From Schmidtea polychroa (taxonomy: Eukaryota): a stretch of DNA of 64,000 nucleotides. The notes beneath the pieces are model-generated. The model was given only the letters and a program-made list of their open reading frames with translations. It did not search any database and was not told where the DNA came from. The position numbers were made by a program, and so were the translations under genes. Shown piece after piece: positions 4,703 to 51,556 of the stretch (its first letter is position 1; every line of letters starts with the position of its first letter). The stretch is taken from the NCBI GenBank assembly GCA_044892525.1, contig CM097885.1, positions 29,948,001 through 30,012,000 of the forward strand, written 5' to 3'.

Positions 4703-4854
4703 TTTTAGAAAAAATTTTTTTTCTGGATACGTTGTTTTTAAATTTTAAATTTTTATATATTTATTTTTATTTTTATTTTTTTTTATTTTTATTTTTTTTA
4801 TTTTTTTATTTTTATTTTTATTTTTTTTTTATTTTTTTTATATTTATATTCTAG

Positions 4855-5005: not shown

Positions 5006-5006
5006 A

Positions 5007-17198: not shown

Positions 17199-20100
17199 GG
17201 TTTGGTAACCACTATCTTTGAGGAGACTACAGATGTCACAAGAGACTCAGACACTGTAGAGCTGTCAAATCCAATAGAACTCACAACTATCGAGCAACCA
17301 TGTAGAAGCATGGAAAATAATGAGACCGCAATCTCTACAGTAAATAACAAAAACATAGAAATGAACGTAACAAGTCGGGGAATAATAATAAAACCCATTG
17401 CACCTGTACTCAAAGAAAATATATCAAATAACGAAACAAGAAGGCAATCAAGACAAGATAAAAATATCAGATCCAAGAGTCAGAAGAAAGAAAGACAACA
17501 AAATGACCTCGATAGCCATAGATACGACAAAACAAAACAAAAAACTACGTACCGGTGGAGGACCATCAACGGCAAATACTCAAAAAATTCATCAAAAACC
17601 AAACATGAAGATCAACTGTGATCTGAAAATTCAGTGTATATGCAACAAAAAGTACACCTATTCTACAGATATTAAGGCTGCTAAACAGTATGAAGAGTCG
17701 CATCCACCTGTTGAGAGGCTGATGGTGGAATGTGATCAATGCAACACAACCATCACACTCAAAGAGGCAATAGAGCACATAAAAGTACATAAAGAGAATA
17801 GAGCCAGAGAAAGAAGCGAACAGCAGCCCGCCGCCAAGCCAACAAAGGAAGACATCCTTACGGAGATCAGTTGACTATCACAGACAGCAATCGAATATTA
17901 CATAGATTTTCTATCAGGTAATAAAGCTACACCAAACACCGTGGCCTATATTAAACCAACATGTGCCACGGAAAAGTTAGTGACGAATATCTAATCCAAG
18001 CCCTTAACAGATTCCTAAAACTCATGAACAGCGGCCACCTCCCCACTATCAAAGAAACTCCAACAGAAATTGTACAAGAAATTATAGAAAAAAATCATAC
18101 TACAAAAAAGATTATTACTGAAGATAATACTGCAACAATATACGGTATCTTTAAGGAGCCAAAGATCGATAAAAACACAAAATTAACGAAAAGAGATAGA
18201 ACCAAATCATCTAATGAGGAACAATCTAGTAGTAAAAGGAGACAAACACAATCTCCATCAACTCCAAGAAACAAATTAAAAATAAAAGGAGGAGGAGCAC
18301 CAATTGACCCAAATATACCAGCACCAGAATTCGACTTTACTCTAAATAACGAGTATAATGTTGAATGTAACCGTTGTAAAGAAAAAGATGTATATAAGTC
18401 CAAAAATTATGATGATGCCTGGAAACAAAAAAAACATCAAAAACATCAATTAAAAAATAAATCCCTTCCAATAGTCAAATGTGTAGAATGCGAAAAACCA
18501 TTCAAAGGAAATGAGTGCGAAAACCATGTAAAAATCCACACAGACCGTGATATAAAAAACAACCAAATTGGATCAACAACAGTAGACCACAATGCCATTC
18601 CATCGCAGAACAGCTGACTATCACTGGCTGCAATGGAAACTTACATCAGAATTCTCCTGGAACAAAACCAATCAATGAATAAAACCATCAAATACATAGA
18701 ACCAAGACTGGCAAACCTGCTTATCAATCGAAACTTGAGAACATTTCATAATGAAATCAAGATAGACTCCCTGATTGGATGGGAACTAATAGTCTGGCCT
18801 AGTCACTGGAACAACTGACTTTGGATTGTCTACCTTGCTAATTACGAGGATAAAACCTCTATTATCTTGGACTCAGACAATCAGATGACAACATTGCAAA
18901 AGTGTTATATAAAAGACAGACTAGATAAATTCCTGGAAAATACAGTGGAAGAAAGAACTATCTTTAAATTACTTGAAAACAGATTAATTCCTCAACAATC
19001 AAATGACTATGATTGTGGAACATACATCCTACAATTCATAGAGGACTTTATAAAAGATCCTGAACGACAAAATTGTCAGACTCCAAACTCAATTAAAATT
19101 AGGAACATAATCGGAAAACAGATTATGGAAGAATTAAAAGATGCCAAAATGAATACACCAAGGAAGTCAAATAAAGAAATAGATGATTTACTCCTCAAAT
19201 TGAAGCTACTACAGATAGACATCGATTCTGTACTTCAATGGTTCACGAACAAATATAATGAAACAATCCCTAAGCAAAAGAACAAAAGAGGTGGAAAGAT
19301 CAACATCTCCAAATGTTCGTACCAAATTCAGAGGTTATTTGCTATAGCTCCAAAAAGAGCAGTAAAAGAAATATATAAAAACGAGTCAGCTCCAGCAGAC
19401 CTTCCTAAAAACATCTTAGATGTTTACTTCATAAAGGAAATTCCAGATATCCAGGAATGTAGCTGTTGTGGTTGGCGTAGTCCTTTCTGGTAATTTGGCA
19501 ATAGTTGCACCACTTTTCAATTGATCATCTATTTTGTCTATTTCAATTAATATTTTACCTTGTTCAACTTCAGATTTTAAGTTACAGGTTTCCAAAAGAT
19601 CTGATTTGTTCTTGAATAAATTAGACATTGCATTGAAGAAATTTTGTTCGATTTTCTCTAAAACATTTCCAATATAATTCATTATAGAATCGGAATCCGT
19701 GAGTGACGTAAAATTTCTTCCATCGAATTCGACTTTAATTTTTTTACATAATTTATCTACTATAATTCGGCAATTATGACCATTTATTAATAATGCAGCA
19801 AAATGCAAGTTATCATTTCCAAAGTTCTCTACATTGAGATATTTTAGAGAATCCATGCATTCGAATGAATCTTTGGGATAACAATAAGAATTTTTAGCTA
19901 GCGAAAAACAACCCAATTGAGGTTTTTGCATATCGTTTATTTTACTCATAAAAATATTCTGATGAATAAGTCAAATTGCAGGTAAAGATATTTTTAATTT
20001 AAATTACAAAGTTTTTAATTTGAATTACAAAAATTTACAGATCTGAGTAAAACAAAAATATATAATAGAAACTACATAAAAAATGTAAATATAATCAGAC

Positions 20101-21207: not shown

Positions 21208-21214
21208 TTAAAAC

Positions 21215-24200
21215 TAAAAATTTATATAAGAATTTTGATAAAAAATAAATGATTAAACTACAAATGCTTAAAAATTATATATAACATTAAAAATATATCT
21301 AAACATTTAAACTTTAAAGAAATATATATTAAAATATAATTTTAAAGATAAAAAATCTTTAAATTTAAAAGAAATATGTTACCAAAGAATATTGAACTAT
21401 CAACAGAAAATAATAAAAACTCTGAATGATAATTGAATAATAATTTTTAAAATGTTACTTATTCAATTAAAAACAAAAAACGAATCCAGATAATATTCAG
21501 GGAAGCAATAACAATGCCAAAAAACCAAGATCCAATAATGAAAAACGCAGCAACTCTGCCCAAAAAAATGAAATCAAAAATTCAGAGACTCCCATAAAAC
21601 CATTAAACTTTGACAATAATGTCAAATCTAATGATATAAATATATTTCTATTCCATGAAAATACCAGATTATCAAAAACATATATAGAAATAGAATATTA
21701 TAAGAAGAAATTTGTAAAAATCTGTCAAAAATGATAAAAAATAGTGAATGTTATAAAAACGATAAATTTGTCGTTTAAATTATCGTTTTAATTGCAGTTT
21801 TAATTTTTAATGTTTTGAGTATGATTTAATTATTTCAAGATTCATTAATAATAAAAATCAAGATTTAATTAATTTTTGAAATATTAAATTTATCACAGAA
21901 AATATCTCAAAGTTAGAGGATATGGGTCTTTTATTAGAAATAAAATATAAAAATATCTATTGAATAAAATAAGCATTTTTAGAAATAAAAATGTAAACAA
22001 TTTTAAAAATTCAATATTTATTTAAAATTTGGAAGTTCAAATATTGAATTAAAAAAAATTTTTTTTTGGCAGAATGGTTTTATTTAATTATAGTTGAATT
22101 ATTTTTATTTTTTTAAAGTTAAAAATGTAAGTGTGTATAATATTATTGAAATAAATAAAAAAAATATCATAAAAAATTTAAATGATAAAAATTAATTTAT
22201 TATTAAAAATAATTGAAAATATACAAAAAACAAATCAAATTTAAAAATATCAATAAAAATATTTAGAAATAAAAGTTAAAACAATTTTTAAAATTTAATA
22301 TTTTTTTTTAAAAATGGAAGGTCAAATATCGAATTTAAAAATATTTTAATCCAAATTTAAAAAAAACATTTAATTATAATAATAATATTGAAATTTTAGA
22401 TCAAGATGATAATAAACAATTAGAATGTTACAATGATATTTATGAAAAATATATCTAAAATATCAAACTTTAAAGAAAATTATATCAGAATATGATTTTA
22501 AAGATAAAAAATATATTAAAATTTCAAAAATATTTTAACAAAAAATATTGAAGTACCAACAGATTTATAATAACTCTAACAATTATATAAATAATTTTTT
22601 TTAATTTAACTAATTCAATGAAAAAGAATTTTAAAACAATGAAAAATTCGAAATTCAGAACAATTCAGAACCTCGTCCAAATGAAATTGGAAAAGCCCTA
22701 AATAACTTTCCACCAGCATCCAAGATGAAAAACAACGATAACTAAATGCCAATTAATAGTAAAATAATTAATTAACAGTTTAATCAATAACTTATATATA
22801 ATTAAAAATAAAAAAAAAATTAAAAAAATTAAATCATTAAATTATATTATATTTCTGATTATTCTTGAATGAAGAGTTTGAACTTTTTGAATTCTATGAT
22901 TGTTGAGTTCTCAGTTTCTGGTTGTTTGGTAGTGGAAATCTCTCTGGCTTTGGTTACAAATGCGTTCATATTTTCTTTTGAAATTTTCTTTTCGGTATTT
23001 CATATCTGGGAAAGGTTGGCAGAGGTTTTTATTATTTTCTTTATGTTCTTTGAGGTTTTATATGAAATATATTTATCATTTATTTGTTCTTTGATAAAAT
23101 TTTATAATTTTTGATAAAATTCGATTTCAAAGGTTTATTTTCGTCAAAATATTTTGTTATTAAAATTTTATCACTTCATAATAAAATTTTATTGTTTTTG
23201 TAACGACTCCTGACAATTTTATCAAAATCAAATGAAAATTTATTATTTCCATCTGTAACTTTAAAATTGTTATCAAATATAAGCAATTTTTAGTAAAACA
23301 TCAATGAAAAATCAAAATTCAGAACAATTCAGAACCTCGTCCAAATAAAATTGGAAAAACCCCTTATAACCTTCCACCAGTATCCAAAATAAAGTAGAAC
23401 AAAAACGAAATGCCAAATTATAGTAAAATAATCAATTAACAGTTTAATATATATATATATATATATTTCATTTCTTATTCCTTGTGATCTCCAATGCTTC
23501 GAATTGAAACAGTTTTTCTTGTATGTCTTGTGATGACATTTAGATAAAAACTTTCGTTTCTTGGAATCTGGATGTTAGTGGGCTGATAATATCTGGTTGG
23601 TAATTGGTTGTTATTATCTAGTTATTATCTAGTTATATTCGATAACTAACAGCTTCTACAAAATCCAAAGAATCTACTAGGTCATCCTGGAAGACTAATC
23701 CGAGAAATTGATAACGTCTTTAGTCTTTTATCAAAAGGTGAATGCATTTAAAATTAGGACAGGATATGTTATCAGATTACACAAAAATCCATCATAATTT
23801 AATATCAAATAAAATAAGTAGATTATTTAACAAAATTAAATTATTTTTAGATAAAGAAATACCAATCGAAACAAGAAGAAAATATGTCGTTTGCATTATG
23901 TTTTGAGTATGATTAAATTATTTGAGATTCAATAATAATAAAAATTAAGATTTAACTAATTGTTGAAATATTAAATTTATCACAGAAAATATCTCGATGT
24001 TAGAGGATATGGGTCTTTTATTAGAAAGTTAATTTATTAATAAAAATAATTTAAAATATACAAAAAACAAATAAAATATAAAAATATCTAATGGCTAAGA
24101 TAAATATCTCAAAATTAGAGTATATGGGTCTTTTATTTGAAAGTTAATTTATTATTAAAAATAATTTAAAATATACAAAAATCAAATAAAATATAAAAAT

Positions 24201-25010
24201 ATCTTTTGGCTAAGATAAACATTTTTAGAAATTAAAATGTAAATAATAATTATTTAAAATTGAAAGTTCAAATATTGAATTAAAAAAAAATTTTTTTTGG
24301 CAGAATGGGTTTATTTAATTATAGTTGAATTATTTGTATTTTTTTAAAGTTAAAAATGTAAGTGTGTGTGTAAGTCATAAATATCATAAGAAAATTTAAA
24401 TGATAAAAATTAATTTATTATTAAAAATAATTGAAAATATACAAAAAACAAATCAAATTTAAAAATATCAATAAAAATATTTAGAAATAAAAGTTAAAAC
24501 AATTTTTACAAATTTAATATTTTTTTTTAAAAATGGAAGGTCAAATATCGAATTTAAAAATATTTTAATCCAAATTTAAAAAAAACATTTAATTATAATA
24601 ATAATATTGAAATTTTAGATCAAGTTGATATTAAAAAATTAGAATGTTACAATTATATTTATGAAAAATATATCTAAAATATCAAACTTTAAAGAAAATT
24701 ATATCAGAATATGATTTTAAAGATAAAAAATATATTAAAATTTCAAAAATATTTTAACAAAAAATATTGAAGTACCAACAGATTTATAATAACTCTAACA
24801 GTTATATAAATAAATTTTTTTAATTTAACTAATTCAATGAAAAAGAATTTTAAAACAATGAAAAATTCGAAATTCAGAACAATTCAGAACCTCGTCCAAA
24901 TGAAATTGGAAAAAGCCCTAAATAACTTTCCACCAGCATCCAAGATGAAAAACAACGATAACTAAATGCCAATACATAGTAAAAAAAATAATTAACAGTT
25001 TAATCAATAA
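21215..25010. repeat. AT-rich block repeat copies, truncated at the Polinton relic
   Basis: ~22570-24790 matches ~6341-8555, and a further partial copy runs to 25010. Confidence 0.9.
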
Positions 25011-25322: not shown

Positions 25323-28300
25323 GTGTTTTACAGTATACATAAATCCCATTTAAATCAGTTCTCTTTAAATAAAAAGGATTTATTTAACAAATTGCAAAAT
25401 ACCGCAAAACCTGTAAATACTACAAAACATAAAAAACCTGTAAATAATATTATAAAACCTGCAAATAATATTACAAAACTTGTAATTAAAACTAATGTAA
25501 ATAATACAAAACATACAAAACCTGTAAATTATATTACAAAACCTATAATTAATAACGTTATTAATGTAAATAATAATATAAATAATTTAAAAAGACCTGC
25601 TGTTAGTATTGGGTCTGATGCTCCCTCTAAAATTAATAAATTAGATCAAATGACTGACAATGATGTGGTTAATAATATTCAAGTAGGCGGTTCAGTCGAT
25701 ATTGACGATGAACCTGAAATCGAAATTGAATTTAAGGGGGTTCGAAAAAATCTACGATTTAATGTAGAGAAAGATAACATGTGATATTCCTAAATTCGAG
25801 ATGAAAAATAAGGATTTAAATTTAGCAATAAATGTTTTAACTTATAGAACGACCTCAACTAAGCCTTTTGAAAATATATTTGACGATAATTATATTCCAC
25901 ATCATCCCAAATTGGATATAATTCACCGATCTAAGGTTATAGGTGGTGAACCCTTATACTTACTTTTATTGGAAGATGGTGCTAATTTTCATTACACCGC
26001 AGTTTTTAACTTACAAAGACTAATGAATTGTCGCTCTAACAGTGAATGCGGCGTTAGAATTAAAGTGAATTGGTGCCCCCATTGTCTTAACGGATTTAGA
26101 CTTAAAAATGCATTTGATATTCACGTTGCCTTATGCATTAAAAACCAGATAGGAACAACTCTATACACGCTACCTAAAGATAAAAACCTTATATTTAGTA
26201 ATTTCGCGAAAACCATAACTCCGCCATTCGTGATATATGCAGACTTTGAATCAATTTTACCGGGGGATATAATACACCATCAAAAGCATTTGCCAATAAC
26301 AGCAGGTTTATTATTAATAAATAATTATAATAACACTAGATTTTATTATGAGTTTGTTGGGGATGATTGTATCTTATCTTTCTTGCGTAAGATGGAGAAA
26401 ATTGCTATGACAATTGTCCTGCCATATTACGAAATTAATGGGAAAAACCCATGCAAACCTTGTCTTTCGCTGAAGAGCGGGCCTTTCGTGATTCGAGAAC
26501 CTGTTTTCTTTGTAAAAATATTCATTAGAAATAGAGTTAGGGATCATTGTCACTTCTTAGGTAAGTATCTTGGTGCAGCCTGTATGAAATGTAATGTTTC
26601 GCGACGAATTCAGAAACAGTTACCTGTGGTTTTTCACAATTTGAGGGGCTATGATCTTCATCATATTTTGAAGTATGGGCTAAATAATTTTCCTTCTTGG
26701 GAATTAAATATTATTCCGACCACTACCGAGAAATTCATATCCCTCATCGTGTATATTAACAAACTGTCTGTTCGTTTTATTGACAGCATGCAGTTTGTTA
26801 ATTCATCTTTAGCAAAAGCGGTTAAGACTCTTTCCGATCTGCCTTTAACTTCTGTTTTCGATGGCGCAATTGTTCGAGCCAAAGGTATCTTTCCTTATGA
26901 CTTTGCCACATCTCTTGAGGTTCTGGAATCGACTCTTGAATTGCCTCCTATTTGGGATTCTGTGTCTAATGATGAATATGCATTAGCCCAAGTTATTGGG
27001 ACTCAGCAAAACTGCAACAATATGTTAGATTACATGTTAATCTACCTTAAATTAGACGTGTTTCTCCTCGCAGACTATTTTCAACAATTCCGTGAAAAGG
27101 CCATTGCATATAATGGTCTTGAGCCTCTTAATTTCTACGGAATTCCCGGTATGTCACGGGCCTCTGCGCTTATGACATTAACGAAACCTATAGAACTTTT
27201 GGAGGACATGGAAATGTTTAATTTCTATGAAGGAGGGGTGGGTTAACATTTGTTAACAAACATTATTCTTAAATGTTGAAAGTTCTGAAGACACAGAACT
27301 CTTGTACATTGATATTAATAACTTGTATGGTTGGGCCTTAAGCCAAAATCTGCCTTATGCTGACTTTGAATGGGTGTATGATAATCTTGATTCTGTCTTG
27401 AATGAATGTATGAATGCTGATAACGATAACCTTCCATATGGTTATACTATGGAGGTTGATATTGATATCCCTGATTGTTTGCATGACTTTCTGAATGATT
27501 TTCCTCTTGCTCCTGAAAAGATGTGCCCGCCAAATTCTAAAGTTGAGAAGCTGATGCTCACGCATTGACCGAAGAAGAACCATGTTCTTCATTGGCGACT
27601 TCTCAAGTTGTATATAGAATTGGGGGCTATTATTAAAAATGTACATAGAGCAATTAAATTTAAGCATGCACCCATTTTTAAATCGTACATAGACAAAAAC
27701 ACTAATTTGAGAGCCAATTCTACATGCGAGCTGCACAGAGATCTATACAAATTATTCAATAATAGTCTGTATGGGAAATCCGTAGAAAACCTTAAAAAAC
27801 GGATGAATTTGAGGCTATGCAATTCAGCTGAAAAGAAGATTGTATATGCTTCAAAGCCGACTTTCAAGAAATCTATCAAAATTGATGATGACTTGATTGC
27901 TGCACATCTCAATAAGGATTCTATATGTTTAGACAGGCCTAGCTACATTGGCCAAACGGTGCTAGACCTGTCTAAACTGAGGATGTACCAGTTACAGTAT
28001 ATAGAATTGGCTAAATATAGAAATGAATTTAAATGTGAGATAAATATCGTTGCCGGCGATACTGACTCCTTTTTTCTTGAGGTTAGGCATTGTAAGCTTG
28101 ACACTCTTTTGCCGGCAATGATTCGTGACAATCTTTTAGACACTTCCAACTATGACCCTGCACATCCCTTATACTCTAGAAACCTTGATTCTGTGATAGG
28201 TAAATTTAAAGATGAAAGTAAAGGTCTAGGGTATAAGGAATGGGTTTTCTTAAGACCCAAGTGCTATAGTTTGTTAGGGGCTAAAGATCATTTAAAAGCA

Positions 28301-28708
28301 AAAGGAGTCAGGTTAATAGGTACAGAAATTAGGCACGATTCATATTTAGAATGCTACAATAACAACGTAGTATTTTCTGTGCCACAAAGTAGGATAGGGA
28401 CGCGGAACCATCAATTGTACACATTTAAAAACAATAAAATCGCGTTGTCAAACAACGATGACAAGCGGTTTTGGGTGGGGAAAAATTCCAGTCTCGCATT
28501 TGGTCATTATTTAGCACTATATGACATAAATGATGATCAAATATTTGAAGAAGTTGGGCCACTATTCGGAGGATTAAGTCCAGATTTTGTTTCTGATGAT
28601 GAGGAAGTGGGTCCACTTTTCAATGGTTTAAGTCCAGATTTCGATTCTGTTGATGATCCTAATGATGATGATGAAATAGATATAGATGATATTTTATTGT
28701 CAGACTAA
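25323..28708 (+). pseudogene. polB: Protein-primed PolB pseudogene
   Basis: Consecutive ORF pieces with IYADFES, RDHCH, VVFHNLRGYD, YIDINNLYG, YKLFNNSLYGKS, AGDTDS, KAKGV; several stops and frameshifts. Confidence 0.93.
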
Positions 28709-29681: not shown

Positions 29682-30381
29682 AAATTCCCCCGGGGGGGGG
29701 GGGGGTTGGAGGGGTATGTGATCCAGCGGGCTCCTGGTCTAGGCAGCCCACATCCTACTACTAAATATTATTAAATAATTCAACCTAAAACGAAAAAAAT
29801 CTCAATTTTAAAGAAATATTAACAAAAAATATTGAAAATCCAATTAATATTTCAAAGAAAAATAAAATATCTCCAGAAAATGATAAAAATAAATTTTGTA
29901 AAAAAAATATATCAAAAAGGTTTATAAAAATTTAAATTTTCAAGAAAATACACATGAAAATTTAAATACAAGAAATAACACAAAAAATTTAAAATTAATA
30001 CATGGAATTTTAAAAATAATAACAATTCAGAGGTATGCAGACGACATAGTATTATGTGATAAAAGCAAAGAAGGACTTCAGTTGTTACTTGACGTAGCAT
30101 TAACCGAGCTGAAGAAGAACGGTTTTTTTTGTATTTCTTAAGAAAATACTACAAATTTAATTATAACAAATGATTGTAATCATGATTTTTGAAGTGATTG
30201 TTTATTAAAATGGATATCAGAAAAACCAACATGACCATTGGATAGAAGAAATATAATATTATTAAAAAATGAAAATTTTGTAATACATTTCATGTCTATC
30301 TTAAGTAAATAGCTACCATGAGTGATCAGCCACCTTGTGATTGACAACAATTATAGAAAATATTGGATAGAAGAAATATAA

Positions 30382-30759
30382 TCTCTCTATATATAAAAAA
30401 GCTAAGGGTTCCCTCCATCCGAATTTTACTTTTTTTTAATTTAATTTAATTTTAATATTTTTTTTTTTATTTTTTTTTTTTATTATTTATTTATTTATTT
30501 TTTATTATTTTTTTTATTATTTTTTATTCTTTTTTATTTTTCACCAACCCCGTTAGAATTTTATCATATGGAAGTGTTCGACTAAATTCGTCAATCATGT
30601 TTAACTTAAAAAACTCTAATAACTTAGTTGTACTATGCTTACGTAACGCCTCCGCTTCGTTCCCTTCTTCAAACGTGATATGATTATCATTTTCCACATA
30701 TTATTTCCAGCATTCTAACGGGGTTGGTAAAGCGAAACGAACAGGGGCGCAGCCCCTAG
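30382..30759 (+). mobile_element. Non-autonomous Helitron-like element
   Basis: 5' A|TCTCTCTATATATAAAA, 3' hairpin AGGGGCGCAGCCCCT overlapping CTAG, no TSD; an empty-site paralog lies at ~30240-30292. Confidence 0.7.
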
Positions 30760-32465
30760 AGTTATTAAAAAAATGAAAGTTTTGTAATACATTTCATAAG
30801 ATTGACAACAACTATAGAAAATATTAAAATTCCAGATGTTTTTGACCTTTTAAGATTTTTGGCAGAATATTATTAGAATATTATTAGCCAATCCTATTGA
30901 TTTAGAATACATATTGGATTGTATCAGATTTAGAAATAGAAATTCACCATTTATTTGGATAAAAGTATTTTTGTCTCATCATTTTGTAATTCTATTACTC
31001 TTAACACATTGATGGACAGTAGAAACAAGTGATATTTGAAAATTGACACTATATGACGGCTATAGACGCAAGTGTCCGTCAACGTGTTAACAAATTCCGT
31101 TTCAGCTTCAGATTATTTAACAAAAATGTACCACATTACAAGGAAATTGATTAATTGTAATATTGATAAACAGTTTTTTGTCTATTGTTTTATAGAAGAT
31201 CAAATATATTTTAAAAACTATTTTTATATAATATTCACTAAAAAATAGTTTATACAATTCAGATTTCAAACATCTTTTTCCCAGATCTAAATTTAGAAAA
31301 CGTTGGTATCATGGATAAAGTATACCTTAACAATGAACCCTCCAGACATTAGAGGAAATGGTGTGGAAAATGGCCAAAATCCTAATTTTATGATGATACA
31401 ATTTAATCAACGAGGTAGAATTTTCTAAATATGAAAGGCAAGACTTGAAACACCAATTATAGTGCCTGCATCCTTAAAATAGCACACTTGACATCTTTAG
31501 CCTAGACATGGAAAGACCAACTCGGTCTGACCATGCATGTCTGAGATATATTGATTATATTTCAATCTTGTTCTTCTGGGAATTGGTCTCGGATTTATTA
31601 GAGATTTTTGAAGTATTAATTTGATTTGATTCTGAATTTTTCTTATTTTTTGATTGGATTAAATAAATTTTCAATTGAATTATTAAAAATTTTAAAAATC
31701 TCCTTGAAATAATTTTTAAAGTTTTTATTATTTTCTTTATGTTCTTCGAGGTTTTTTAATAAAATATCTATAACATTTGAAGATTTTTTATCATTTAAAT
31801 TGTTCTTCGATAAAGTTTTATCATTTTTGATAAAATTCGCTTTCAATTTTAAAGTTTTGTTTTCTTCGCATTCTTTTGTTGATAAAATTTTATTGTTTTC
31901 GTTACGAGTTTTGACAATTTTATGAAAATGAAATGAAAATTTATTATTTCCATCTGGAATTTTAAAATTATTGTTAAATTTAAACGTTTTTTCAATTCTC
32001 TAAAAATTTTAATTAAATTTAATTAGATTTAATTAGATTTAATTAGATTTCGGAAAATTAAATCTTTTGAAGGGTAAAGGTAAAATATATTGAAGGAATA
32101 TAAAGATTTCATTAAATGGATAATTCTTTCAATGATATTTTGCTAAATTACGCTTTGCTAAATATTATTTTTCGTTCATCTAATTGTAATTCGTAATCCA
32201 TTTGACCTACATAAAACTCTAAAAAATTAAGTGAAAAAACATTGCAAATTATGAAAATAAAAAGATTTATTTGACCTACATAAAAGTACTAGCCGTTTTA
32301 GAAAAAAAATATTTACCCCGGAGGAGGGCACTGATCCAACAGTCGCCAATCCATCTTCCTTTTTAAATACTGAAATATCTAATTTTCTAATTAATTTAAA
32401 TAATTTAATATTAAAAATTAAATTTGTTTGAAAAATCACTTTAAAAAGGACTAAAAAAATTGCCC

Positions 32466-33134
32466 ATGCCTCAACAGGAATCAGAAGAAATGGAAATGTT
32501 ATTACGTAACTTATCTGAAGTTATTGAAGAAGAAAAAAGAATAATGGATAAAATATCTATTCAAAAAGATGAAATTAAGAAAACAATAAATTCAATTGAA
32601 CAATACAAACAATGCCATTGTGAACAAAATCAAATGCTTTCTAGAGTAAAATTAATTTCTCAACCTTTTCTATTATTTATATCTAGTTTAAAGAAAACGA
32701 ATTGGACGTGAAACTAAAGAAAAGAAAAATTTTCCAAGGTAATATAAATGTTATAATATTTTTAATATTTTTAGAAATCCGAGATTTGGATGATGAAAGC
32801 AAAATTGCCAAACAAGTCGTAATTGAAGAATCAACAAGTCAATCACAATTTATTGAGATCATTGAGTATGTTTGCATATATATATTATCGATCATTGATT
32901 TGTTAAAGAAATCAGTTCGCGACAAGCCATGATTACCAATCTCAAATGGTTATTGCACACAATGATATTGCAATTGGGCAATTATCAGGCGAATCATTGG
33001 ATGAGATTATTATGTATATTTGTATATATGTGTGTATGTATTATTGATCATCAATATCACTTAGGATTGAATCGCCACCACCTAAAAGAAGAATGTTAAA
33101 TGGCTGTGAAATCATTGATTTAACCGATAGCGGG
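32466..33134 (+). CDS. Spliced host exons, coiled-coil protein of unknown identity
   Basis: MPQQESEEMEMLLRNL...; short GT-AG introns; last exon IESPPPKRRMLNGCEIIDLTDS followed by GT. Confidence 0.5.
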
Positions 33135-33928
33135 TAAATTTTATTTAATTTATTTTAATTTCTTTCAAATTTTATTATTGCAAATATTTTTTACAATTAT
33201 ATTTTACAATTATTATTTATTCTACTAATTTCATCATTTATCATAATCAACAAACTTTTTCAAGTATAAATTATTACAAAAAATGAAATTATTTTCATTT
33301 GTTTCTTTTATGTGAGTTTTATAAGTAGATGAATATGTCCCTTCCACACCACTAACCCCCCCCCCCCGATAGAAATTTTTTTTAACTCGGAATTTTATAA
33401 CTGACATAAAGATATATAGTCTATATATAGAAAATTTCCCAAATTTTAAAAAGTCCGAAAAATTATTTTACTTAAAATTTTAAAAGTCCCAAAATTAAAT
33501 TTTCTCAATTACAAAAATTCCCAAAATTTCAAAAAGAAAAATTTTAAAAAGTTACAAAAAATTAAAATCTAATTTTGTACGCTGCAAAACGGAATTTCAC
33601 GTGTACGCATATGAACCTATTGTTAATAAGGTCTTAATTGAAAACTCGAAATCCAAAAAATAATCACCAAATTTCAGCTTAGGATTGCTTAGTTCTAACT
33701 TCTATGTAATTTTGAATTCATGAAGCAGCAAATTTGAGATTAAATTCAGTCATCAAACAACAGAAAATTTTGAACAAGCATTAGTTTGTTTTCATTGCTT
33801 CAAATGTTTTGATTTATGTATATTTTTCATATTTAAAAGATCAAAAAATTCAAAAATATTGATGTTAAAAATAAATTTTTCTCTCTAATCATCAAATAAT
33901 TTAAAAATCAGTAAAATTAGAAAACATA

Positions 33929-34165
33929 CTCCCTCTATCCAAGATGATAGGTTAGTTGCATTTTAGCCTTTATCCCAAAATGATTGTCAATAGAGAATAT
34001 AAAAAGTTGAACGGTTTTGTATAACCTTTTAAAGTGAAAACACATTAAATAATTTTATTTTATTGATTGAACAAATAACTAAACTGCATTCTAAGTATCA
34101 CTGTTACGTATAAAAGAAATTACAATTTAAAGTCAAACTGGATTATCAATTTTGGACAGAGGGAG
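33929..34165. mobile_element. Tc1/mariner (Stowaway-like) MITE in the left arm
   Basis: TA|CTCCCTCTATCCAA...TTGGACAGAGGGAG|TA. Confidence 0.85.
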
Positions 34166-34344
34166 TATTTGTTTTAACTTATCAACATTTCAAATTTGGA
34201 TAATTTTGTATGATTGAATTTAATATATAGGCTGCCATCTGAAGGTATAATTTATATTGTACCATTGATCAAAATGGCCGGAGTATCAAACAATATATAG
34301 CTCAATAAGATCCTAAATGATTGTAATATTAACACTCGAATAAA

Positions 34345-35010
34345 TAAAAAAAATCATTTACATTATTTGTATTTAGAGTCTCATACAAATCTTCGTCATT
34401 AATAAACTTAATAGATTCAATAATAATCTTTATCACACGCAAGGTATTGGTTTTCATGACATGAGCAACCTTTTGAACATGTACTGAATCCTAAGTATCC
34501 AACCAGCTGTCGTAGTCAATCACCATTGCCAAAGATGCATAACATAAGTCTAATTCTTTGACAAGAATCACTTCGGGAACTGTAGTCACAATGATAACAG
34601 AAGCTACCATTTGATTCCAAAACTTTGACTAAAATTTCAAAGAAAACCTTGGTCATTCTATGGTAAGAAATGTTCCAGATTTATGGACTTCCTCACATAC
34701 TTGTGCTGCAGACTTTAGCAATATCTATCAAACATTGAAATTATCAAATAAAATATTTAATACCTGATGGATTATCTCACAAAACGGCTCACTCATTGGA
34801 TTCTGATGAACACCTTGTGATGAATTAGGTTGTATATCATAGAAAGTTTGAAAACTTTTATTTGTTCGATGAACAAAAAAAATGATACGAAACTTCAAAA
34901 TCTCCAGGTTGATTGCAATAATGTCTGTACATTTAAGACTTTTCAATGCACACAAATTAGCACGATAGTTAATATTCGTAGGGTTTATTGTATGATTTTG
35001 GTCATATATA
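34345..35010 (-). pseudogene. MTAP: Methylthioadenosine phosphorylase pseudogene fragment retaining an intron
   Basis: [64 protein letters not shown]; a GT..AG intron at ~34763-34725; in-frame stops. Confidence 0.88.
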
Positions 35011-35286
35011 TTGACGAGAACACTCGGAAACGTTTTTTGAAAATATCCAATTTGGTCAATCCGATGCAATCAATTATGTAAATCTATTCAAAATGAGTAA
35101 GTAAATATTTCGATTAAAATAATTCAATACCATACTTTAATCGAAATCATTTGTATACAAATCAATTTATGTACAGGTACATAAATACTACTTAAATTTG
35201 TTTAAATTAACCACACATCATCGAACTTTTGCCCAGGGTCTTAGTATTTTAACATCCTGACACACATTGTTGCAATCAACAATATA

Positions 35287-35640
35287 TCTGGAACATTTGT
35301 TACCATAGAATGACCAAGGTTTTCTTTGAAATTTTAGTCAAAGTTTTGGAATCAAATGGTAGCTTCTGTTATCATTGTGACTACAGTTCCCGAAGTGATT
35401 CTTGTCAAAGAATTAGACTTATGTTATGCATCTTTGGCAATGGTGATTGACTACGACAGCTGGTTGGATACTTAGGATTCAGTACATGTTCAAAAGGTTG
35501 CTCATGTCATGAAAACCAATACCTTGCGTGTGATAAAGATTATTATTGAATCTTTTAAGTTTATTAATGATGAAGATTTGTATGAGACTCTAAATACAAA
35601 TAATGTAAATGATTTTTTTTTATTTATTCGAGTGTTTATG
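35287..35640 (+). pseudogene. MTAP: Inverted duplicate of the MTAP 3' half in the right arm
   Basis: SGTFVTIE*PRFS...[28 protein letters not shown], with the same stops as the left-arm copy. Confidence 0.85.
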
Positions 35641-35801
35641 TTACAATAATTTAGGATCTTATTGAGCTATATACTGTTTGATACTCCGGCAATTTCGATC
35701 ATTGGTACAATATAAATTATACCTTCAGATGGCAGCCTATATATTAAATTCAATCATAAAAAATTATCCAAATTTGAAATGTTGATAAGTTAAAACAAAT
35801 A

Positions 35802-36032
35802 CTCCCTCTGTCCAAAAATGATAGTCCAGTTTGACTTTAAATCGTAATTTCTTTTATACGTAACAGTGATACTTAGAGTGCAGTTTAGTTATTTGTTCAA
35901 TCAATAAAATATTTAATGCGTTTTCACTTTAAAAGGTTATACAAAACCGTTCAACTTTTTATATTCTCTATTGACAATCATTTTGGGATAAAGGCTAAAA
36001 TGCAACTAACCTATCATCTTGGATAGAGGGAG
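35802..36032. mobile_element. Mirror copy of the same MITE in the right arm
   Basis: TA|CTCCCTCTGTCCAA...TTGGATAGAGGGAG|TA at the equivalent position. Confidence 0.85.
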
Positions 36033-36829
36033 TATGTTTTCTAATTTTACTGATTTTTAAATTATTTGATGATTAGAGAGAAAAATTTATTTTTAACATC
36101 AATATTTTTGAATTTTTTGATCTTTTAAATATGAAAAATATACATAAATCAAAACATTTGAAGCAATGAAAACAAACTAATGCTTGTTCAAAATTTTCTG
36201 TTGTTTGATGACTGGATTTAATCTCAAATTTTCTGCTTCATGAATTCGAAATTACATTGAAGTTAGAACTAAGCGATCCTAAGCTGAGATTTGAGGATTA
36301 TTTTTCGGATTTCGAGTTTTCAATTAAGACCTTATTAACAATAGGTTCATATGCGTACACGTGAAATTCCGTTTTGCAGCGTACAAAATTAGATTTTAAT
36401 TTTTTGTACCTTTTTAAAACTTTTCTTTGGGAAATTTTGGGACTTTTTTTTTGAGAAAAAATTTGAGAAAAATAAATTTGGGACTTTTTAAAATTTGGGA
36501 AATTTTTAAGTTGGGATTAATGAGTGGTGTGAATGTTGCATGGTGTGGAAGGGACATATCCATCTACTTTTATATGATTTTTTTTTGGTTTTGATTTGTT
36601 AAAATCTGACAAAGTAAATAATTAAGAAATTTCAAAAGATTTGAGTTTGATAATCAACATTTGATATTTTCCCCTAATTGACTTAATAAAGCACTTTTCT
36701 AATGTGTTAGGGTTATTGGCGGGTATGCAGCTTTGTTTAAGGTCAGGATAAATTCTTTGCCACCGATTAAGGTAGCATTTGCACTTCATAATTTTGCTAA
36801 TGCACATAAAAATCAATATTATATTTCCT

Positions 36830-38960
36830 TATAGTGCTATAACTCATCATGATGCGTTATTGTACCACAATATCTTCAGAAATGGATCAATTAATGATCT
36901 TGATCAAAGGATCAATCAAATGCGTTTTGAAAATCAATTTCTAAAAATATATTGCAATATTAAAAATTTTATTTTAGACATAACAATGAGGAATCACAAA
37001 GAATATCGGAAATACACGTCATTGAAGACGGAGTCATCTCGGCCGGTGAGAATGGATACTTGGAACTTCACAAGTGGGATGTAAGTTGTTTTACTGAATA
37101 ATAATTTCTCATCCAATACTTGACAATATAAGGCCAATATCAATGATATTTTACATTGGTAATGAATATCAGTAAATTCGAAACTTTGCACAACTCTGTT
37201 AAAATACAAACCAAATAGTGACCCAGGCGTTAGATAAAAATGTAACCTGCAAAACCTTTCGGATATCTTAAACGGATCTTGTTATAAATATATTTCACTT
37301 GGTTTCCAGTTAACGTTATTTCCTACGACCCTCTCAATTTCCCTATATCCATATCATTTGATTCTTTCTTGAAATTATCACATTTTACCTGATCTCAACA
37401 AATATGAAAGTTTTATATATTTATAAGGCACACTAGATTTCGGTGGCCGGACAAAATATCATGGTATAAATGTTGTTGATAATATACCATTGCGACATGT
37501 TGAGTTTGATCAGTACTTTTGCGACCAATACCCAGTATATTTTGTCCGGTGACATTTTGTCCTAGAACTGATATTTCTTCACAGCATTTAGCAAGTATGT
37601 GTCATAAAAGTTGTTTCAAAATATCATGCACTTTATAAAATGTTTTGATCAAGTTTTACAAATATTAATATGAAAATTATTGAATTAAAAAGGTGAAACC
37701 AAAAATATGATAGTTTTCTTTTATGTATTTTAATTAATAAAACCTTTGATATATTTTATGAAAACAAAATATTTCATCTTATTATTATTAATCATAAAAT
37801 GTACGACCTTAATCTGACACCTTTACAGAACAATAAGGAAGCAATATCTTCAGGGACAACTGAAGATATCTTAGGTTTTCATCTAGTCAAGGGGAGGATC
37901 TTGTTATATACTGGATACAAAATCATTCTCACTGCTAGACCACAAGTAAGGAAACCCAATTGAGAAAGAAATGCAATTTACGACTAATCTAGAATAAATC
38001 ACCCGCGACAATAGTAAAGAGCTTCAAACCTCAGACAATCGTAAATTTCAATAGAAATGACGACAGGTTTGAAATAGCTCTACGAAACGGCGATATATGG
38101 AGTTATGATTTTCCTGAAGGCACTTTTGTGAAAGTTTTCACTTGGAACTTCCAATTGAAATCAATAATCTCAGTTACCAATCAATCGGTTGCACTTTCAT
38201 CGGTAAATTCTTTATTCTCTCTTTTATTTGAATATTTCCCATGTAGAAATCCAAGGTCTATCAATCAAATAATTACAAACATGTTAAGGAAATCAAATCC
38301 TTGGAAGGATGCCAACAAATTTATAGTGATAAATCTTATAAACAGTTTTTAGTAATTTATCCATCATCGATTTACTGGATTAATTGGAAGGTACTTTTTG
38401 TTTTATGTTGTTAGAGGGATTTCATGGTCAGGATCTTCGAATGATGTCATTTATGTAGCAGCCATTAAATGAGCATATTGTGGTAAAATGTACCAAAAGA
38501 CGACCACCAAAAGAATGATGACATATTCAAAGACCCTCGATGTTATTGAGATCATCATCACCTAATAACTATTATATATGAATAATAAATATTTTACATT
38601 TAGAACTGCAACATTGAACATGAAATACGAATAGCGGTTCCTCTGAAAAATTTATATTTTTATTCGTCTTCCTTTGTGACAGTCGACATAGAAAACTCTG
38701 TTACAATATTCAAGGTGAGATTAATTTATTAAATTTATTTATTGTTTCAATATAAAAATTAGAAGAAACCGAAGGGTTCCATAAGGGTGGTTGAGAAATT
38801 TGGAGCGGAAAATGACATAACAGCAATGTCAAACCTTTACTGTCAGAGGGTGAGACCATTTTGTTCAATTGGGGTATAATTTATTGCATTTTAGATTTAT
38901 TTGGCAATTAACAACCAGATTCAGCTGCTCAACCTCAAATTTAAGCTTTCCTCTGTTTAT
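36830..38960 (+). CDS. Spliced host exons, divergent beta-propeller/WD40-like protein
   Basis: Exons such as RISEIHVIEDGVISAGENGYLELHKWD|GT and RFEIALRNGDIWSYDFPEGTFVKVF, bounded by AG/GT. Limits approximate. Confidence 0.45.
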
Positions 38961-41592: not shown

Positions 41593-43347
41593 AGTAGTAT
41601 GATGTGAGCTCCCTGCCGGATTTTAGTACCCCCCCCCAACTACTCAAAAATTATTCAGAAGTTAACAAATATTTTCATTTATCATTTCCTTTTATTTCAT
41701 TATTTTTATTTTATTAATTAATTATTATAATTTTAAATCTTTATTTTTTTGTTATTTGATTTATTTTAGTGTAAATTTAAATTAATAATTCTTATTTGTT
41801 ACTTATTTATGCAAACTGAGACAAAAATGTTCAAAGTATAAACATGTATTAGTCAAACTTATTATACATTTAATTCTAAAGAAAATCAATAAAAACCAAT
41901 ATTTTAGCAAAGATTTATTTAAACAACATCTGGTATATCTTGAGCTGATTCTTTGAATTGCGAGAATGATGGATCCGGGTCGAATTATTGAACTGCAAAT
42001 GAGTCACCTCCCATATAATGCCCATATGCATAACTTTTATTATTTACTGGATTTAAGGATAATATTTTTAAAGATCACATCGATAACAATACCCAACTTA
42101 GGGCGGAATCGAGTAATGCCTTGGATAAAAATTATTATAAGTTATTAAATAATAGTCTTTACGACAAAACCGTAGAAAATCTGAAAAAAACGTCTGAATT
42201 TGCGGCATTGTAATTTGGCTTCTAGGTTAATTACATATACATCTAAACCAACGTTTAAAATAACTTATGAAATTGACAATGACTTAGTATCATTCTTGCT
42301 AAATGAGGAAGCTATTTGTTTAGATAGACTCAGTTACATTGGTCAAACTGTACTGGATTTATCGAAACTTAGAATGTATCAGCTGCAGTATGAAGAGTTA
42401 CAAAAATATCGTAACGAATTCAACTGTAAAATTAATATCGTTGCAGGCGATACGGATTCAATTTTTCTTGAAGTAATTAATTTTAAACTTGATGTTCTTT
42501 TACCAGCCATGATCCTTGATAATTTACTAGAAACATCTAATTACGAACCTAGTATTCCTTTATATAGTAGGAACTTTGATTCTGTCATTGGAAAGTTCAA
42601 AGACGAGAATAAAAGTCTTAAATATAAGGAGTGGATTTTCCTGAGGCCAAAGTGTTTTAGTTTGTTAAATGATGACGAGACTAAAAAAGCTAAAGGAGTA
42701 ACATTGAAAAGTAATGACATAAAACATCAGTCGTACCAGGATTGTTATAACATTAATCATATTTTTTCTATACCGTAAACTAAAATAACTACCAAAGATC
42801 ACCAGCTATTCACCATAAAATAATGAAATAACTGCATTTATCGACGCAGATGATAAAAGGGTTTGGGTAAGGAAAAATAAAAGTTATGCATATGGGCATT
42901 ATATGGGAGGTGACTCATTTGCTATTCAATAATTCGATATTGATCCATCATTCTCGCAATTCAAGGAATCAGCTGAAGATATACCAGATGTTATTTAAAT
43001 AAATCTTTGCTAAAATATTGGTTTTTATTGATTTTCTTTAGAATTAAATGTATAATAAGTTTGACTAATACATGTTTATACTTTGAACATTTTTGTCTCA
43101 GTTTGTATAAATACGTAAAGAAAAGAATATTTAGAATAACAGATAAAAATTATTAATTTAAATTTACACAAAAATAAATTAAATAACAAAAGAAATAAAG
43201 AAATTAAATTATAATAATTAATTAATTAAATAAAAATAATGAAATAAAAAGAAATGATAAATGAAAATATTTGTTAACTTCTGATTAATTACTAAGTAGT
43301 AAAGGGGGGGATACTGAAATTCGGTAGGGAGCGTACATCATACTACT
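41593..43347 (+). mobile_element. 1755-bp mini-Polinton with ~450-bp inverted arms and a PolB 3' fragment
   Basis: AGTAGTATGATGT ... ACATCATACTACT; flanks TATAAA / TATCAA (5 of 6 match); arms ~41593-42041 and ~42876-43347. Confidence 0.9.
42046..42998 (+). pseudogene. polB: C-terminal pPolB fragment
   Basis: YKLLNNSLYDKTVEN, YIGQTVLDLSKLRMY, VAGDTDS, FLRPKCFS; closely related to 27608-28708. Confidence 0.92.
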
Positions 43348-47000: not shown

Positions 47001-49840
47001 TTATTTACTGCTACTACTTGCACCTGATACGTGGCACTGCATCTTATCAGCAAGTTCTTCGTATTTCGGGCAATAGGAGCTTATGGCGATCCGCAAGCAT
47101 GATTCCAAATGATCATCTGTCAAACAAGATCGATGTTTTGTTTTAATGACATTCATTGAAGAAAAGGCTGATTCACAAAGATAGGTGGATCCAAAAAATG
47201 CGGACATATATCCAACTACTCTCCGCAAAATTGGATATTTTTCTTCTGAAATAAGATTCCAAAAATTATCTTCGGTTGTAGCTCTTGATTTTAAGTAAAT
47301 GTCGCTTTTCAACGCTATTATCTCATCTTCTAAGCAAGCTGAATCTGAATCCAGAAATTCATTAATCTGAGTAGCGATCTCCTCTGTATCAATAACATCA
47401 TTAAACGGGAATGACATGAACATAGCAATATTTGCAATTTTAGATAAATCTGCGAAACGTGTGTTAAATTCATTTAAAAGGGTAGTAATTTGATTTGTAT
47501 ATTTATCGTAAAGAATTCCTGGCGCATTTTTGGATTCTTCTTCCATGTTTTTAAAATGTTTCAAATCACCCCGTTCTAGTTGACGCACAAACAAGGACAG
47601 TTTCTCTTTAAACGTCTTTACTGCCGTTATCATGTCAAGAATTGATTTGTGTCTCCCCTGAAGCTGTAAATTTAATTTATTCAGGTGCTCTGTAAAGCAA
47701 GATTTATCAGCCAACTTTTATCCTCCAGTTCGGGATATAATTCTTCTCTTCCAGTCAAAAACTGTTTTATTCCGGGCAAAAGATCTCTAAATCGTTTTAA
47801 AAATGCTGCACGGCTAAGCCATCTTACATCCGTGTGTAACAATAATTCAGTATTTTCAATTTCACATTGTTCAAGCAAAGTTCGAAATTGACGTCGTTGT
47901 AGACTTCTTGCACGTATCGAATTTAGTATTTTAAACGCAATATTCATTACATAGTTAGAGTTCAACACTTTGGAGCATAAGGTTTGCTGGTGGATAATGC
48001 AATGATACGAATGAAAACTGGGAATTTCTTCATCATTTTTGCAAAGTGTTACAAATCCGACATGTTTTCCGATCATAGACGGAGCTCCATCCGTGGTAAT
48101 TGATACCAACTTGTGAATCGGGAAATGGGTGCGACTTATAAAAGACTTGAATAAATTGTAAATATCTTGACCCCTTGTTTGTCCTTTCATTGGAAGAATA
48201 GTCTGTATTCTTCTCTGGTTGACATATCATCAAAAACCATTCGAATGAAGATGCATAGTTGCGCAGTATCAGTGAAATCTGTAGATTCATCAAATATCTT
48301 GCCGCAAAATATCTTCCAAGTTTTTGCTAATGTCCACCATTCTTTGCGTGCTAGTATTGCGCGTCAATGACATATTGTTGATACAATCCATTATTTCGGA
48401 TTTATTTTTAAAATCTTTGAATAACACCTCACCAGCTTCAACAAACGCCTGTTTCCATATTTCGCCATCTCCAAAAGGTTTTTTATGTTTCATCAAAATA
48501 TTAACTACCTTGAATGATGCTAGGGTAGCTGTTTTTGATTTTGAGTTAAATTTCGTAAAAAAAGTTTGTTGTGCGCCTAATTGAGACTTTAACTGCTTGA
48601 CTTTGTCTTTTCGTACCTCGGAATGTAATGGAATGTCAATTTCATACTGTTTGTGCACTGTTCGAAAATGTCGTTCAACGTTAGCTCTTTTAGGTAGTGC
48701 TACGTTTGAATTACAAATGAGATAAACACACTTATCTTTCATCATTATGAAAAAAAATTCCTGTTCCCATTCAGTATTATAATGGTACGTTTTAGTTTTT
48801 TTGGCCGGTTGTGTCATTGGGGCTAAAACAAGAAAATAATAAAATCTTACATCCGTGTGTAACAATAATTCAGTATTTTCAATTTCACATTGTTCAAGCA
48901 AAGTTCGAAATTGACGTCGTTGTAGACTTCTTGCACGTATCGAATTTAGTATTTTAAACGCAATATTCATTACATAGTTAGAGTTCAACACTTTGGAGCA
49001 TAAGGTTTGCTGGTGGATAATGCAATGATACGAATGAAAACTGGGAATTTCTTCATCATTTTTGCAAAGTGTTACAAATCCGACATGTTTTCCGATCATA
49101 GACGGAGCTCCATCCGTGGTAATTGATACCAACTTGTGAATCGGGAAATGGGTGCGACTTATAAAAGACTTGAATAAATTGTAAATATCTTGACCCCTTG
49201 TTTGTCCTTTCATTGGAAGAATAGTCTGTATTCTTCTCTGGTTGACATATCATCAAAAACCATTCGAATGAAGATGCATAGTTGCGCAGTATCAGTGAAA
49301 TCTGTAGATTCATCAAATATCTTGCCGCAAAATATCTTCCAAGTTTTTGCTAATGTCCACCATTCTTTGCGTGCTAGTATTGCGCGTCAATGACATATTG
49401 TTGATACAATCCATTATTTCGGATTTATTTTTAAAATCTTTGAATAACACCTCACCAGCTTCAACAAACGCCTGTTTCCATATTTCGCCATCTCCAAAAG
49501 GTTTTTTATGTTTCATCAAAATATTAACTACCTTGAATGATGCTAGGGTAGCTGTTTTTGATTTTGAGTTAAATTTCGTAAAAAAAGTTTGTTGTGCGCC
49601 TAATTGAGACTTTAACTGCTTGACTTTGTCTTTTCGTACCTCGGAATGTAATGGAATGTCAATTTCATACTGTTTGTGCACTGTTCGAAAATGTCGTTCA
49701 ACGTTAGCTCTTTTAGGTAGTGCTACGTTTGAATTACAAATGAGATAAACACACTTATCTTTCATCATTATGAAAAAAAATTCCTGTTCCCATTCAGTAT
49801 TATAATGGTACGTTTTAGTTTTTTTGGCCGGTTGTGTCAT
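47001..49840 (-). pseudogene. hAT transposase, frameshifted and internally duplicated
   Basis: BED-like LIC..RHFRTVH, DESTD, TTDGAPSM, HCIIHQ, VRWLS, STYLCESAFS. Confidence 0.93.
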
Positions 49841-49866
49841 TGGGGCTAAAACAAGAAAATAATAAA
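47821..49866. repeat. 1023-bp direct tandem duplication inside the hAT element
   Basis: 47821-48843 matches 48844-49866; identical ORFs are offset by 1023. Confidence 0.95.
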
Positions 49867-51556
49867 AGCTTAAATAAATTAAATATGAAAATTAATGTTA
49901 AACACACTTACATACTCAAAAATTAAAAATGTTAACTTTATAAAGAATTTTTTTTAATAAAAAAATTTTGAAATTAATATTATAAGCAGGTATTATTCAA
50001 TACTGAATACTTCAAGCTTTCAAATTTTTCTAACGAAAACAATTTGATTTCAAAATTGAAATAGACAAACACACGTTTGTTGTATTTTATTTTGGTTGTT
50101 TTTTATTTTTTTATTCCTTATCGAAGATTGTAGCGTCAATGTTTTGCTTTTATTTTATGGCCTACTTGTTCAAACACATGAAATTTATTCTGATTATTAG
50201 CTAACTGTATATATTTGAATTTCAAACTCAAAATTTACTACACTCTGAGTGTTATCTGACTAATATTATGTTTCTTATTGGAATTTTTTTGTCATATGAA
50301 TCGAAACTTATTTTAAATATGTTTATAAAGTTAGAAATTCAATAAATAAAAAACTGATTTTTATATGCAATTTTCCATAGTGCAAGCGGGCTACTTTCGA
50401 TAGCTACGCGGTCGACGCTTTTGCCAGCCCTGATATAGATCGATAAAAATCGTAGTGATTAGTATTTTAAATTTATTTAATTTTTTAATTTTTAATTATT
50501 TTTTTTGATTTATTTATCATATTTATTTTTATTAATTAAAATTTTTTATTTTTATTAATAAATTTAATTATTAATTTATAGTTATATTTGTTTATAATAC
50601 ATGTTTTTTTATATTATTAATCATTATTAATTTAAATTTTATTAATTCTTTATTTAATAAAGTTATTTTAATTATATTATTTTATTATTAATATTCACTG
50701 AAATAAATTAATGCTTTAAATATGCTATTCTTATTATAAATGCAATAATATATAGATCGATAAAAATAGTATTATATTATTATAAATTTATTTAATTTTT
50801 GTTATTTTTATTTAGTTATTATTTATGATTTTTTTAAATTTATCATATAATTTTATTAATTATTTTTTTAATTTTTATTATCGTTATTATTATTATTTAG
50901 TACCCCTAAATATGCACAAAATTAAACTGATAATTAATTTAAAAAGTAACAAGAATGATTTTTTATAAATTTAATTAAACATTTTTTAATTATTAATTTT
51001 TTATTATTTTATTAATTTTTTTGGTAATTTTCTTACATTATCCTAATCTAATCAACACGTGCGTTTATTTGCTCGATATATGTAAATAAATAAAATTTAC
51101 GAGATTTGCATCGGCGAACAGATTTATTGTACAAATGAATTTCAATTTATCGACATTAAGGAGAATTTCTAATAATTACTGAAATAATTTATATGCTTAC
51201 AAATGCATTGGGATCTGGCATTTTAGTACTGCACGTTCATAGGCTCGTTACCAAGTCCAAACCTGTCTGCTTTGTTGTTGAAAGGGTTAACAATCTTATA
51301 TTCTCCTCACTCCTTTCCACGACCCATAGCAACCAATGGAACATGACAAATCAGGCAGCGGTTGTTAGCAAATCAATATTATTATAATTTATAAGGCAAA
51401 GTAATAAATAATAATTAAATTAAATTAATGATTATAATAATAATAATAATAAAAATTAATAATAAATAATCAATAAAAAATAAATGCATAAATAATCAAT
51501 AAATAATAATCATTTAATAAATAATAATAATAATAATAATAAATAAATAATAAATT

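Follow-up and report, generated by a model that had tools for sequence, protein, structure and literature searches.

Most Pack-TIRs of animals belong to hAT or mariner and are present as single copies, and only four multicopy cases were counted among 370 of them, in addition to Ssk-FB4 (PMC8277862, main text). Multicopy gene-capturing DNA transposons are therefore a rarity in animals according to the main text of that survey, which names no Polinton: the words "Polinton" and "Maverick" have 0 mentions there. Maverick cargo is already known from complete nematode elements (wasp, krma), in which host-derived, intron-containing genes lie near the terminal inverted repeat (TIR), as described in the available text of bioRxiv 10.1101/2022.07.12.499685. 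According to the available parts of the respective papers, Mavericks have target site duplications (TSDs) of 6 bp, ends with an AGT motif and TIRs that are 46-1,447 bp long (PMC8097293), and Polintons, whose classification is given in PMC5753468, have TSDs of 5-8 bp and TIRs of 100-1,500 bp (PMC10748475). In C. elegans, Polinton TIRs drive the rearrangement of host genes (PMC11414722, available text). The available text of the giant-transposon review PMC6431247 describes no gene capture by Polintons.

The element described here lies in a 64-kb window, that is, the whole stretch of DNA that was analysed. Like the multicopy Pack-TIRs of the survey main text, such as Drosophila Ssk-FB4, it is non-autonomous, contains a near-whole host gene taken up as DNA, is probably represented by several copies and has long TIRs and filler at a breakpoint (PMC8277862); intron-bearing host sequence is located between its TIRs, and a TSD surrounds them. 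Unlike those hAT, TcMariner and MULE/FB4 elements, it has ends starting with AGTAG and a TSD of 6 bp, its cargo lies within the inverted arms, and its copy number as estimated by depth is 12-20, whereas the TSD of Drosophila Foldback FB4/MULE is 9-10 bp (PMC8277862, main text). With the nematode Mavericks it shares the position of an intron-containing host gene close to the TIR. However, those elements are largely complete and carry coding protease or kinase cargo, whereas in the element no Polinton gene is present and a broken housekeeping gene is duplicated in a fold-back (bioRxiv 10.1101/2022.07.12.499685, available text). Vertebrate Mavericks (12.7-24.6 kb) also have 6-bp TSDs and AGT-type ends, and the TIR length of the element falls within their range of 46-1,447 bp; unlike them, the element is 3.2 kb long, lacks core genes and has an AGTAGA end (PMC8097293, available text).

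The autonomous Polinton/Maverick gene set (pPolB, integrase, capsid, protease and ATPase) was absent from the element. Non-autonomous Polintons were reportedly described by Kapitonov and Jurka in 2006 as short gene-less derivatives with Polinton ends, and the element is similar to these in its shortness, lack of genes and Polinton-type ends. We know of no captured intron-containing host gene in a non-autonomous Polinton. The maize Mu killer is a hairpin-forming inverted duplication, and palindromes with arm-to-arm conversion are also said to have been described. The element is like both in having long transposon-derived inverted arms in a transcription unit and patchy homogenisation, but its arms are only 97.6% alike and hairpin silencing is putative here. 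Neither a Polinton-type Pack element nor MTAP cargo was found in the literature searched, although one may exist in Repbase, in supplements or in subscription papers. A small Polinton-ended family with an amplified housekeeping gene offers a clean system for mapping the uptake of host DNA by Polintons because the donor is known and the breakpoints, introns and nested MITE serve as markers. The virus-like Polintons likely give rise to small derivatives in which host genes are taken up and multiplied.

Ends, cargo and insertion site of the element

The element occupied positions 33324-36568 (3,245 bp). Both strands started with AGTAGA, at 33324 on the plus strand and at 36568 on the minus strand, and these starts belonged to a 28-bp terminal inverted repeat (33324..33351 on the plus strand and 36541..36568 on the minus strand, the latter ending in CTACT) with one mismatch between the two ends; the AGTAG...CTACT termini proposed in the earlier note were thereby confirmed. 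The 28-bp terminus occurred exactly twice in the 64-kb window and was not obtained in any of 100 shuffles. Comparison of the flanks revealed TTTATA at both 33318..33323 and 36569..36574, a perfect 6-bp TSD, as had been claimed, and the chance of 6-mer identity between the local flanks was 0.12-0.15%. The end motif AGTAGA agreed with the published (AGT)2 in 5 of 6 letters, being neither exact (AGT)2 nor (AG)3. Inward of the terminal repeat, as far as the start of the arms, the left and right ends were unlike each other (33352-33430 versus 36507-36540). The left-only subterminal stretch (33352..33430, plus strand), which had no right-end counterpart, contained a run of 12 C (33356-33367); the C-run that had been noted near the ends was therefore found at the left end and not at the right one.

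The only ORF of at least 100 aa inside the element was a piece of MTAP, and no Polinton ORF was found there, in agreement with the earlier observation that Polinton coding sequence was missing. A search of metagenome contigs with the terminal 26-mer gave 0 matches. The terminal 18-mer had five matches among viral contigs, none of which extended (4-5 of the next 10 letters agreed), and these were rejected as chance matches. There were 0 Rfam matches in 32000-38000, and the predicted folding of the termini, the inner junction and the MITE start was unremarkable (z from -0.98 to +0.24).

Two pPolB ORFs were present in the window, at 458-4744 and 25768-28705. Downstream of the second one, an AGTAG/C-run end was located at 29762, and 11 of its first 14 letters were identical to the right end of the element; this end was without the 28-bp repeat of the element, and the likeness faded after approximately 14 letters. 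A second AGTAG-ended fold-back (41593-43347) contained a pPolB piece 70% identical to the pPolB of 25768-28705. Among the viral-collection relatives of the window pPolB, there was a contig in which an integrase-like ORF, identified by eye, followed the polymerase. No polymerase- or integrase-coding element with the same 28-bp terminus was found in the 64-kb window. The element is likely, though not proven, to be a non-autonomous Polinton derivative. As for its designation as a "Pack"-type non-autonomous Polinton, the absence of coding capacity, the multicopy cargo and the similarity of the ends to polymerase-linked ones speak for it, and the motif, with just 5 of 6 letters of (AGT)2, speaks against it.

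The polymerase-linked loci had further features of their own. In the segment 25323-29762, a broken Polinton-type pPolB on the plus strand was followed by a right end with a G-run and CTACTACT; the left part of this Polinton was not found in the window. In the segment 458-5312, a 1,429-aa pPolB ORF on the minus strand, with an N-terminal C2H2 zinc finger, was followed by 16-bp tandem repeats and then by a 306-bp AGTAGT...ACTACT unit (5007-5312) with unmatched flanks. The fold-back 41593-43347 had arms of approximately 460 bp (37 mismatches in 462 columns), a C-run at both ends, a TSD matching in 5 of 6 letters and the pPolB fragment's 3' end in both arms, and a short internal CTACT closed each end.

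The cargo was an MTAP pseudogene on the minus strand (34371..35150), with the ATG at 35150 and an approximate 3' end near 34371. Its protein matched Pfam PNP_UDP_1 with an E value of 1.2e-8 and MTAP of PDB 1cb0 with an E value of 3.1e-33. The cargo started approximately 60 bp upstream of the ATG and ended shortly past the 3' end of the gene. Intron 1 (35084..35135, minus strand; 52 nt, GT-AG), predicted from the sequence, followed a first exon of 5 codons, and intron 2 (34725..34763, minus strand; 39 nt, GT-AG) was spliced out in an X10 contig. The sizes of these introns resemble that of the 36-nt intron (32739-32774) of the flanking host gene. The earlier note had recognized an MTAP pseudogene with an intron, and to this description, which held, the 52-nt second intron and the included start codon can be added. 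Because two introns were retained, MTAP was captured at the DNA level, as had been proposed, and a retrocopy origin was ruled out. The pseudogene was damaged by three stops in the last exon, present in both arms, the loss of approximately 27 codons from exon 2 and a 30-nt loss at 34910. Intact, functional cargo was also ruled out; X10 record 13 likewise ran across the exon-2 deletion with one gap. A protein search with the pseudogene gave four matches of 37-40% identity, and the parent gene was not among them. Comparison of a single MTAP homologue, P0002, with viral contigs gave no pattern match, a weak result since this one protein reaches close relatives only.

The intron of the flanking host gene around the element would extend over 33134..36834 on the plus strand, its boundaries being predicted. 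X10 record 9 joined 32474-32604 to 37024-37140 in a diverged copy of the flanking gene. Because X10 joined host exons from both sides of the element in that copy, the insertion site is likely intronic. The flanking gene (32400-33300 and 36600-37400) occurred in at least three versions, approximately 10% apart and of similar depth, and the insertion was seen in one of them. This suggests paralogues or a polyploid or hybrid genome.

Representation of the element in independent runs

Independent data were provided by contigs of four of the 16 listed runs (X1, X2, X4 and X10). X4 came from a different study than X1 and X2. X10 was presumed to be RNA, which is a guess, as none of the listed runs was recorded as RNA. 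Both junctions of the element were found on window-identical contigs of single-copy depth in X2 (records 15 and 21) and X1 (records 1 and 6) and on near-identical contigs in X4 (record 26). In three of the four runs, a joint of 33309 to 36582, which skipped the element, was detected on a diverged copy of the locus; this element-free joint is in keeping with an insertion but carried 18 other letters at the site and so cannot confirm a single TTTATA. The element is a real insertion.

Contigs of the MTAP region that were approximately 95% like the window had 12-18 times the single-copy depth in X2, 17-20 times in X4 and 13-19 times in X1. In X4 these included record 28 (depth 795.9, 17 differences in 361) and record 27 (depth 885.6). 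It is probable that the MTAP cargo was amplified to 12-20 close copies, a figure obtained by depth alone in the three genomic-type runs compared (three of three), contig depth not being copy number. A depth of approximately 1,000 continued in X2 and X4 to 36382, approximately 190 bp from the end, and the terminal bins reached 4,500-7,600. In the four runs, no family MTAP copy was found on the same contig as a terminus, nor was a second TSD seen. The family MTAP contigs were without the MITE and had 30 letters at 34910 that are missing from the window. At the exon-2 deletion, contigs of family depth had just a 1-letter gap, and the family MTAP contigs appear to share this deletion. They also extended past 35213 into sequence absent from the window (a loose end in X4; 276 letters in X10 record 13).

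One arm per family copy and two could not be told apart by depth. The depth at 34519 and its mirror position matched that of the spacer in X4 (867) and X1 (3,035) and was 2,008, i.e. 2-3 times that of the spacer, in X2. X1 and X4 favour one arm and X2 favours more.

Separate contigs of single depth, with 29 differences in 270 to 50 in 368 (86-89% alike), stopped matching at 34307 and probably represent the host MTAP gene. An X10 contig of depth 191 with 38 differences in 364 looks like the host MTAP gene too. X10 record 12 (depth 39.6, 25 differences in 401) lacked exactly the 39-nt intron; the source of this spliced contig could be either the family or a third copy of the host gene.

The subterminal AT-rich motif at 36435-36516 was observed at very high depth, with many differing loose ends and go-back joints of 43-64 bp. 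Because of these three features, it may be concluded that this motif is common to a much larger set of elements.

Homogenisation of the arms and origin of the element

The left arm (33431..34684, plus strand) consisted of subterminal AT-rich repeats, a non-coding body, the MITE and the MTAP 3' part, and the right arm (35282..36506, minus strand) was an inverted copy of it with the MTAP 3' part on the plus strand. The arms were 94.6% identical by blastn. In their core, 27 mismatches and 7 gap columns were counted in 1,134 aligned columns (97.6% alike), and their length of 1.25 kb bears out the earlier estimate of approximately 1.3 kb. The left arm together with the spacer contained near-whole MTAP; the right arm contained the MTAP 3' part and a 21-bp inner piece. 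This inverted piece (35260..35280, plus strand), identical in 19 of 21 letters to 34908-34928, joined the right arm across a gap of approximately 220 bp. Next to it, the inner junction was occupied by a filler of approximately 45 bp (35214..35259, limits approximate; loose ends at 35213-35259), which had no match elsewhere in the 64-kb window and a bin depth of 41,568 in X2. Apparently, the filler is a piece of a high-copy repeat.

The same MITE insertion was present in both arms, at 33927..34167 in the left arm and at 35800..36034 in the right arm. The nested MITE reported earlier thus exists, but not at a single location. It was 235-241 bp long, with TA at both ends, CTCCCTC termini forming TIRs and a bin depth of 63,000-67,000 in X2 and X4, and is presumably of the Tc1/mariner type. 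Its short length, TIRs, TA duplication and high copy number were accompanied by MITE-empty sites with one TA in the multicopy family (joints 33924 to 34166 in X4 and 35801 to 36037 in X2).

Differences between the arms were unevenly distributed. Identical tracts of 295 and 254 bp adjoined tracts with 9.8% and 10.6% mismatch, the latter having been chosen by eye. Clustering of the mismatches was confirmed by the second-longest gap (P = 1e-4, 20,000 shuffles) and by a two-state model (LR 14.5, a value that none of 60 permutations attained) with fitted rates of 0 and 4.4%; the fitted rate of the high state is therefore 4.4% over the whole arm and not 10%. Two unconverted arms, each approximately 5% from the family, would differ by approximately 10%. 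When the arms were compared with family reads, 40 differences were listed in a tool-chosen subset, with 480 more beyond it. Among the listed differences there were 21 distinct arm sites, at 15 of which both arms were unlike the reads and at 6 of which one arm agreed with them. Private changes, three stops and one MITE insertion were common to both arms, and the MITE and most of the listed shared changes were absent from the MTAP family contigs. The MITE and the changes that both arms share and the family lacks show that homogenisation of the arms took place after the divergence of this copy from the family. Patchy arm-to-arm gene conversion in place is the likely mechanism, and its main rival is that the arms were reset when a diverged donor was transposed. 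Because the MITE and the private changes are found in both arms, the way in which arms of Polinton-derived palindromes stay similar can be tested directly.

Considering the ends, the cargo and the arms together, we favour the view that the element is one degenerate member of a non-autonomous "Pack" family that derives from Polintons. This family would have acquired the host gene in its genomic form, and the polymerase and integrase of autonomous Polintons were likely responsible for its spread; this explanation is reasonably probable. MTAP was taken up as DNA, from approximately 60 bp upstream of the ATG to past the 3' end, boundaries that are visible in the cargo; this may have happened within an element with Polinton ends, through gap repair or a template switch. 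Amplification to approximately 12-20 MTAP-bearing segments, indicated by depth rather than by whole copies, would have followed, and the cargo was presumably already crippled at the time of spread since the segments share the exon-2 deletion. This copy inserted at the locus with the 6-bp TSD seen there, likely into a host intron. Patchy conversion at the locus may have copied the MITE and changes from arm to arm, and template switching or deletion may have built the mosaic centre.

The most serious competitor, to which we give a lesser but appreciable probability, is a family palindromic by nature, with MTAP in both arms (approximately 6-10 elements) and with arms reset at snap-back or panhandle replication; this copy would derive from a diverged MITE-bearing donor and would later have lost its centre. 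The 21-bp MTAP piece in the right junction implies that the right arm once reached further inward, both arms of the second fold-back of the window contain 3' sequence of pPolB, and in X2 one arm site has 2-3 times the depth of the spacer, all of which accords with such a family. However, full resetting predicts evenly spread mismatches and matching outer ends, whereas the mismatches were clustered and 33352-33430 was unmatched at the right. Moreover, window-type letters at 33843 had a depth of 98.8 in X2, approximately twice the single-copy value, so that an identical donor elsewhere is hard to accommodate, a weak argument since rare variants are dropped from contigs. A rather unlikely alternative is that larger Polintons, perhaps autonomous ones, carry the MTAP segments as cargo and that the element is only a deletion and fold-back remnant of one. 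Intron-containing cargo is kept beside the left TIR in nematode Mavericks (bioRxiv 2022.07.12.499685, available text), and the family contigs run past 35213 into non-window sequence, but Polinton coding sequence was found neither within nor adjoining the element, and the onward sequence of the contigs has no tie to pPolB or integrase.

The derivation of the ends from another DNA-transposon superfamily with 6-bp TSDs, which would make the element an ordinary Pack-TIR, has a low probability. It would account for an end motif that agrees with the published one in just 5 of 6 letters and for the fading likeness to polymerase-linked ends after approximately 14 letters, but polymerase-linked ends in the window likewise have the AGTAG start, 6-bp TSD, subterminal C-run and long arms. 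To our knowledge, other superfamilies with 6-bp TSDs do not start with AGT. That the fold-back is an assembly artefact is hardly credible. Although no contig was shown to span the whole element or the inner junction, the arms differ at 27 clustered sites and by indels, runs of two studies yielded independent contigs with both ends and the TSD, one arm agrees with family reads at 6 arm-differing sites, and window-type letters in an identical tract have approximately twice the single-copy depth.

As a tentative and, on balance, doubtful extension of the favoured explanation, palindromic gene-less derivatives ("Pack-Polintons") might constitute their own route of gene duplication, by which whole intron-containing genes enter the arms and are multiplied 12-20 times, with transcription and splicing of some copies. 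A putative intronic hairpin RNA of 1.25 kb might then give rise to small RNAs silencing the family and host MTAP.

Other repeats in the window

Pieces of non-LTR retrotransposons with reverse transcriptase (RT) were found at 11798-14176, 18819-19493 and 58231-63363, and an Ulp1-type protease domain was located near one of them, which we take to be NeSL-like. Blocks at 6334-9806, 15312-17930 and 21214-25010 were duplicated, with 93-97% identity. A hAT transposase remnant (47001-49891) contained a 1,032-bp tandem duplication with 99.8% identity (47821-48852 and 48844-49875), which is either very recent or an assembly duplicate. An insertion of approximately 400 bp (30374-30770), located between direct repeats of 26-30 bp, had a 20-bp internal inverted repeat (30540-30559 and 30712-30731).
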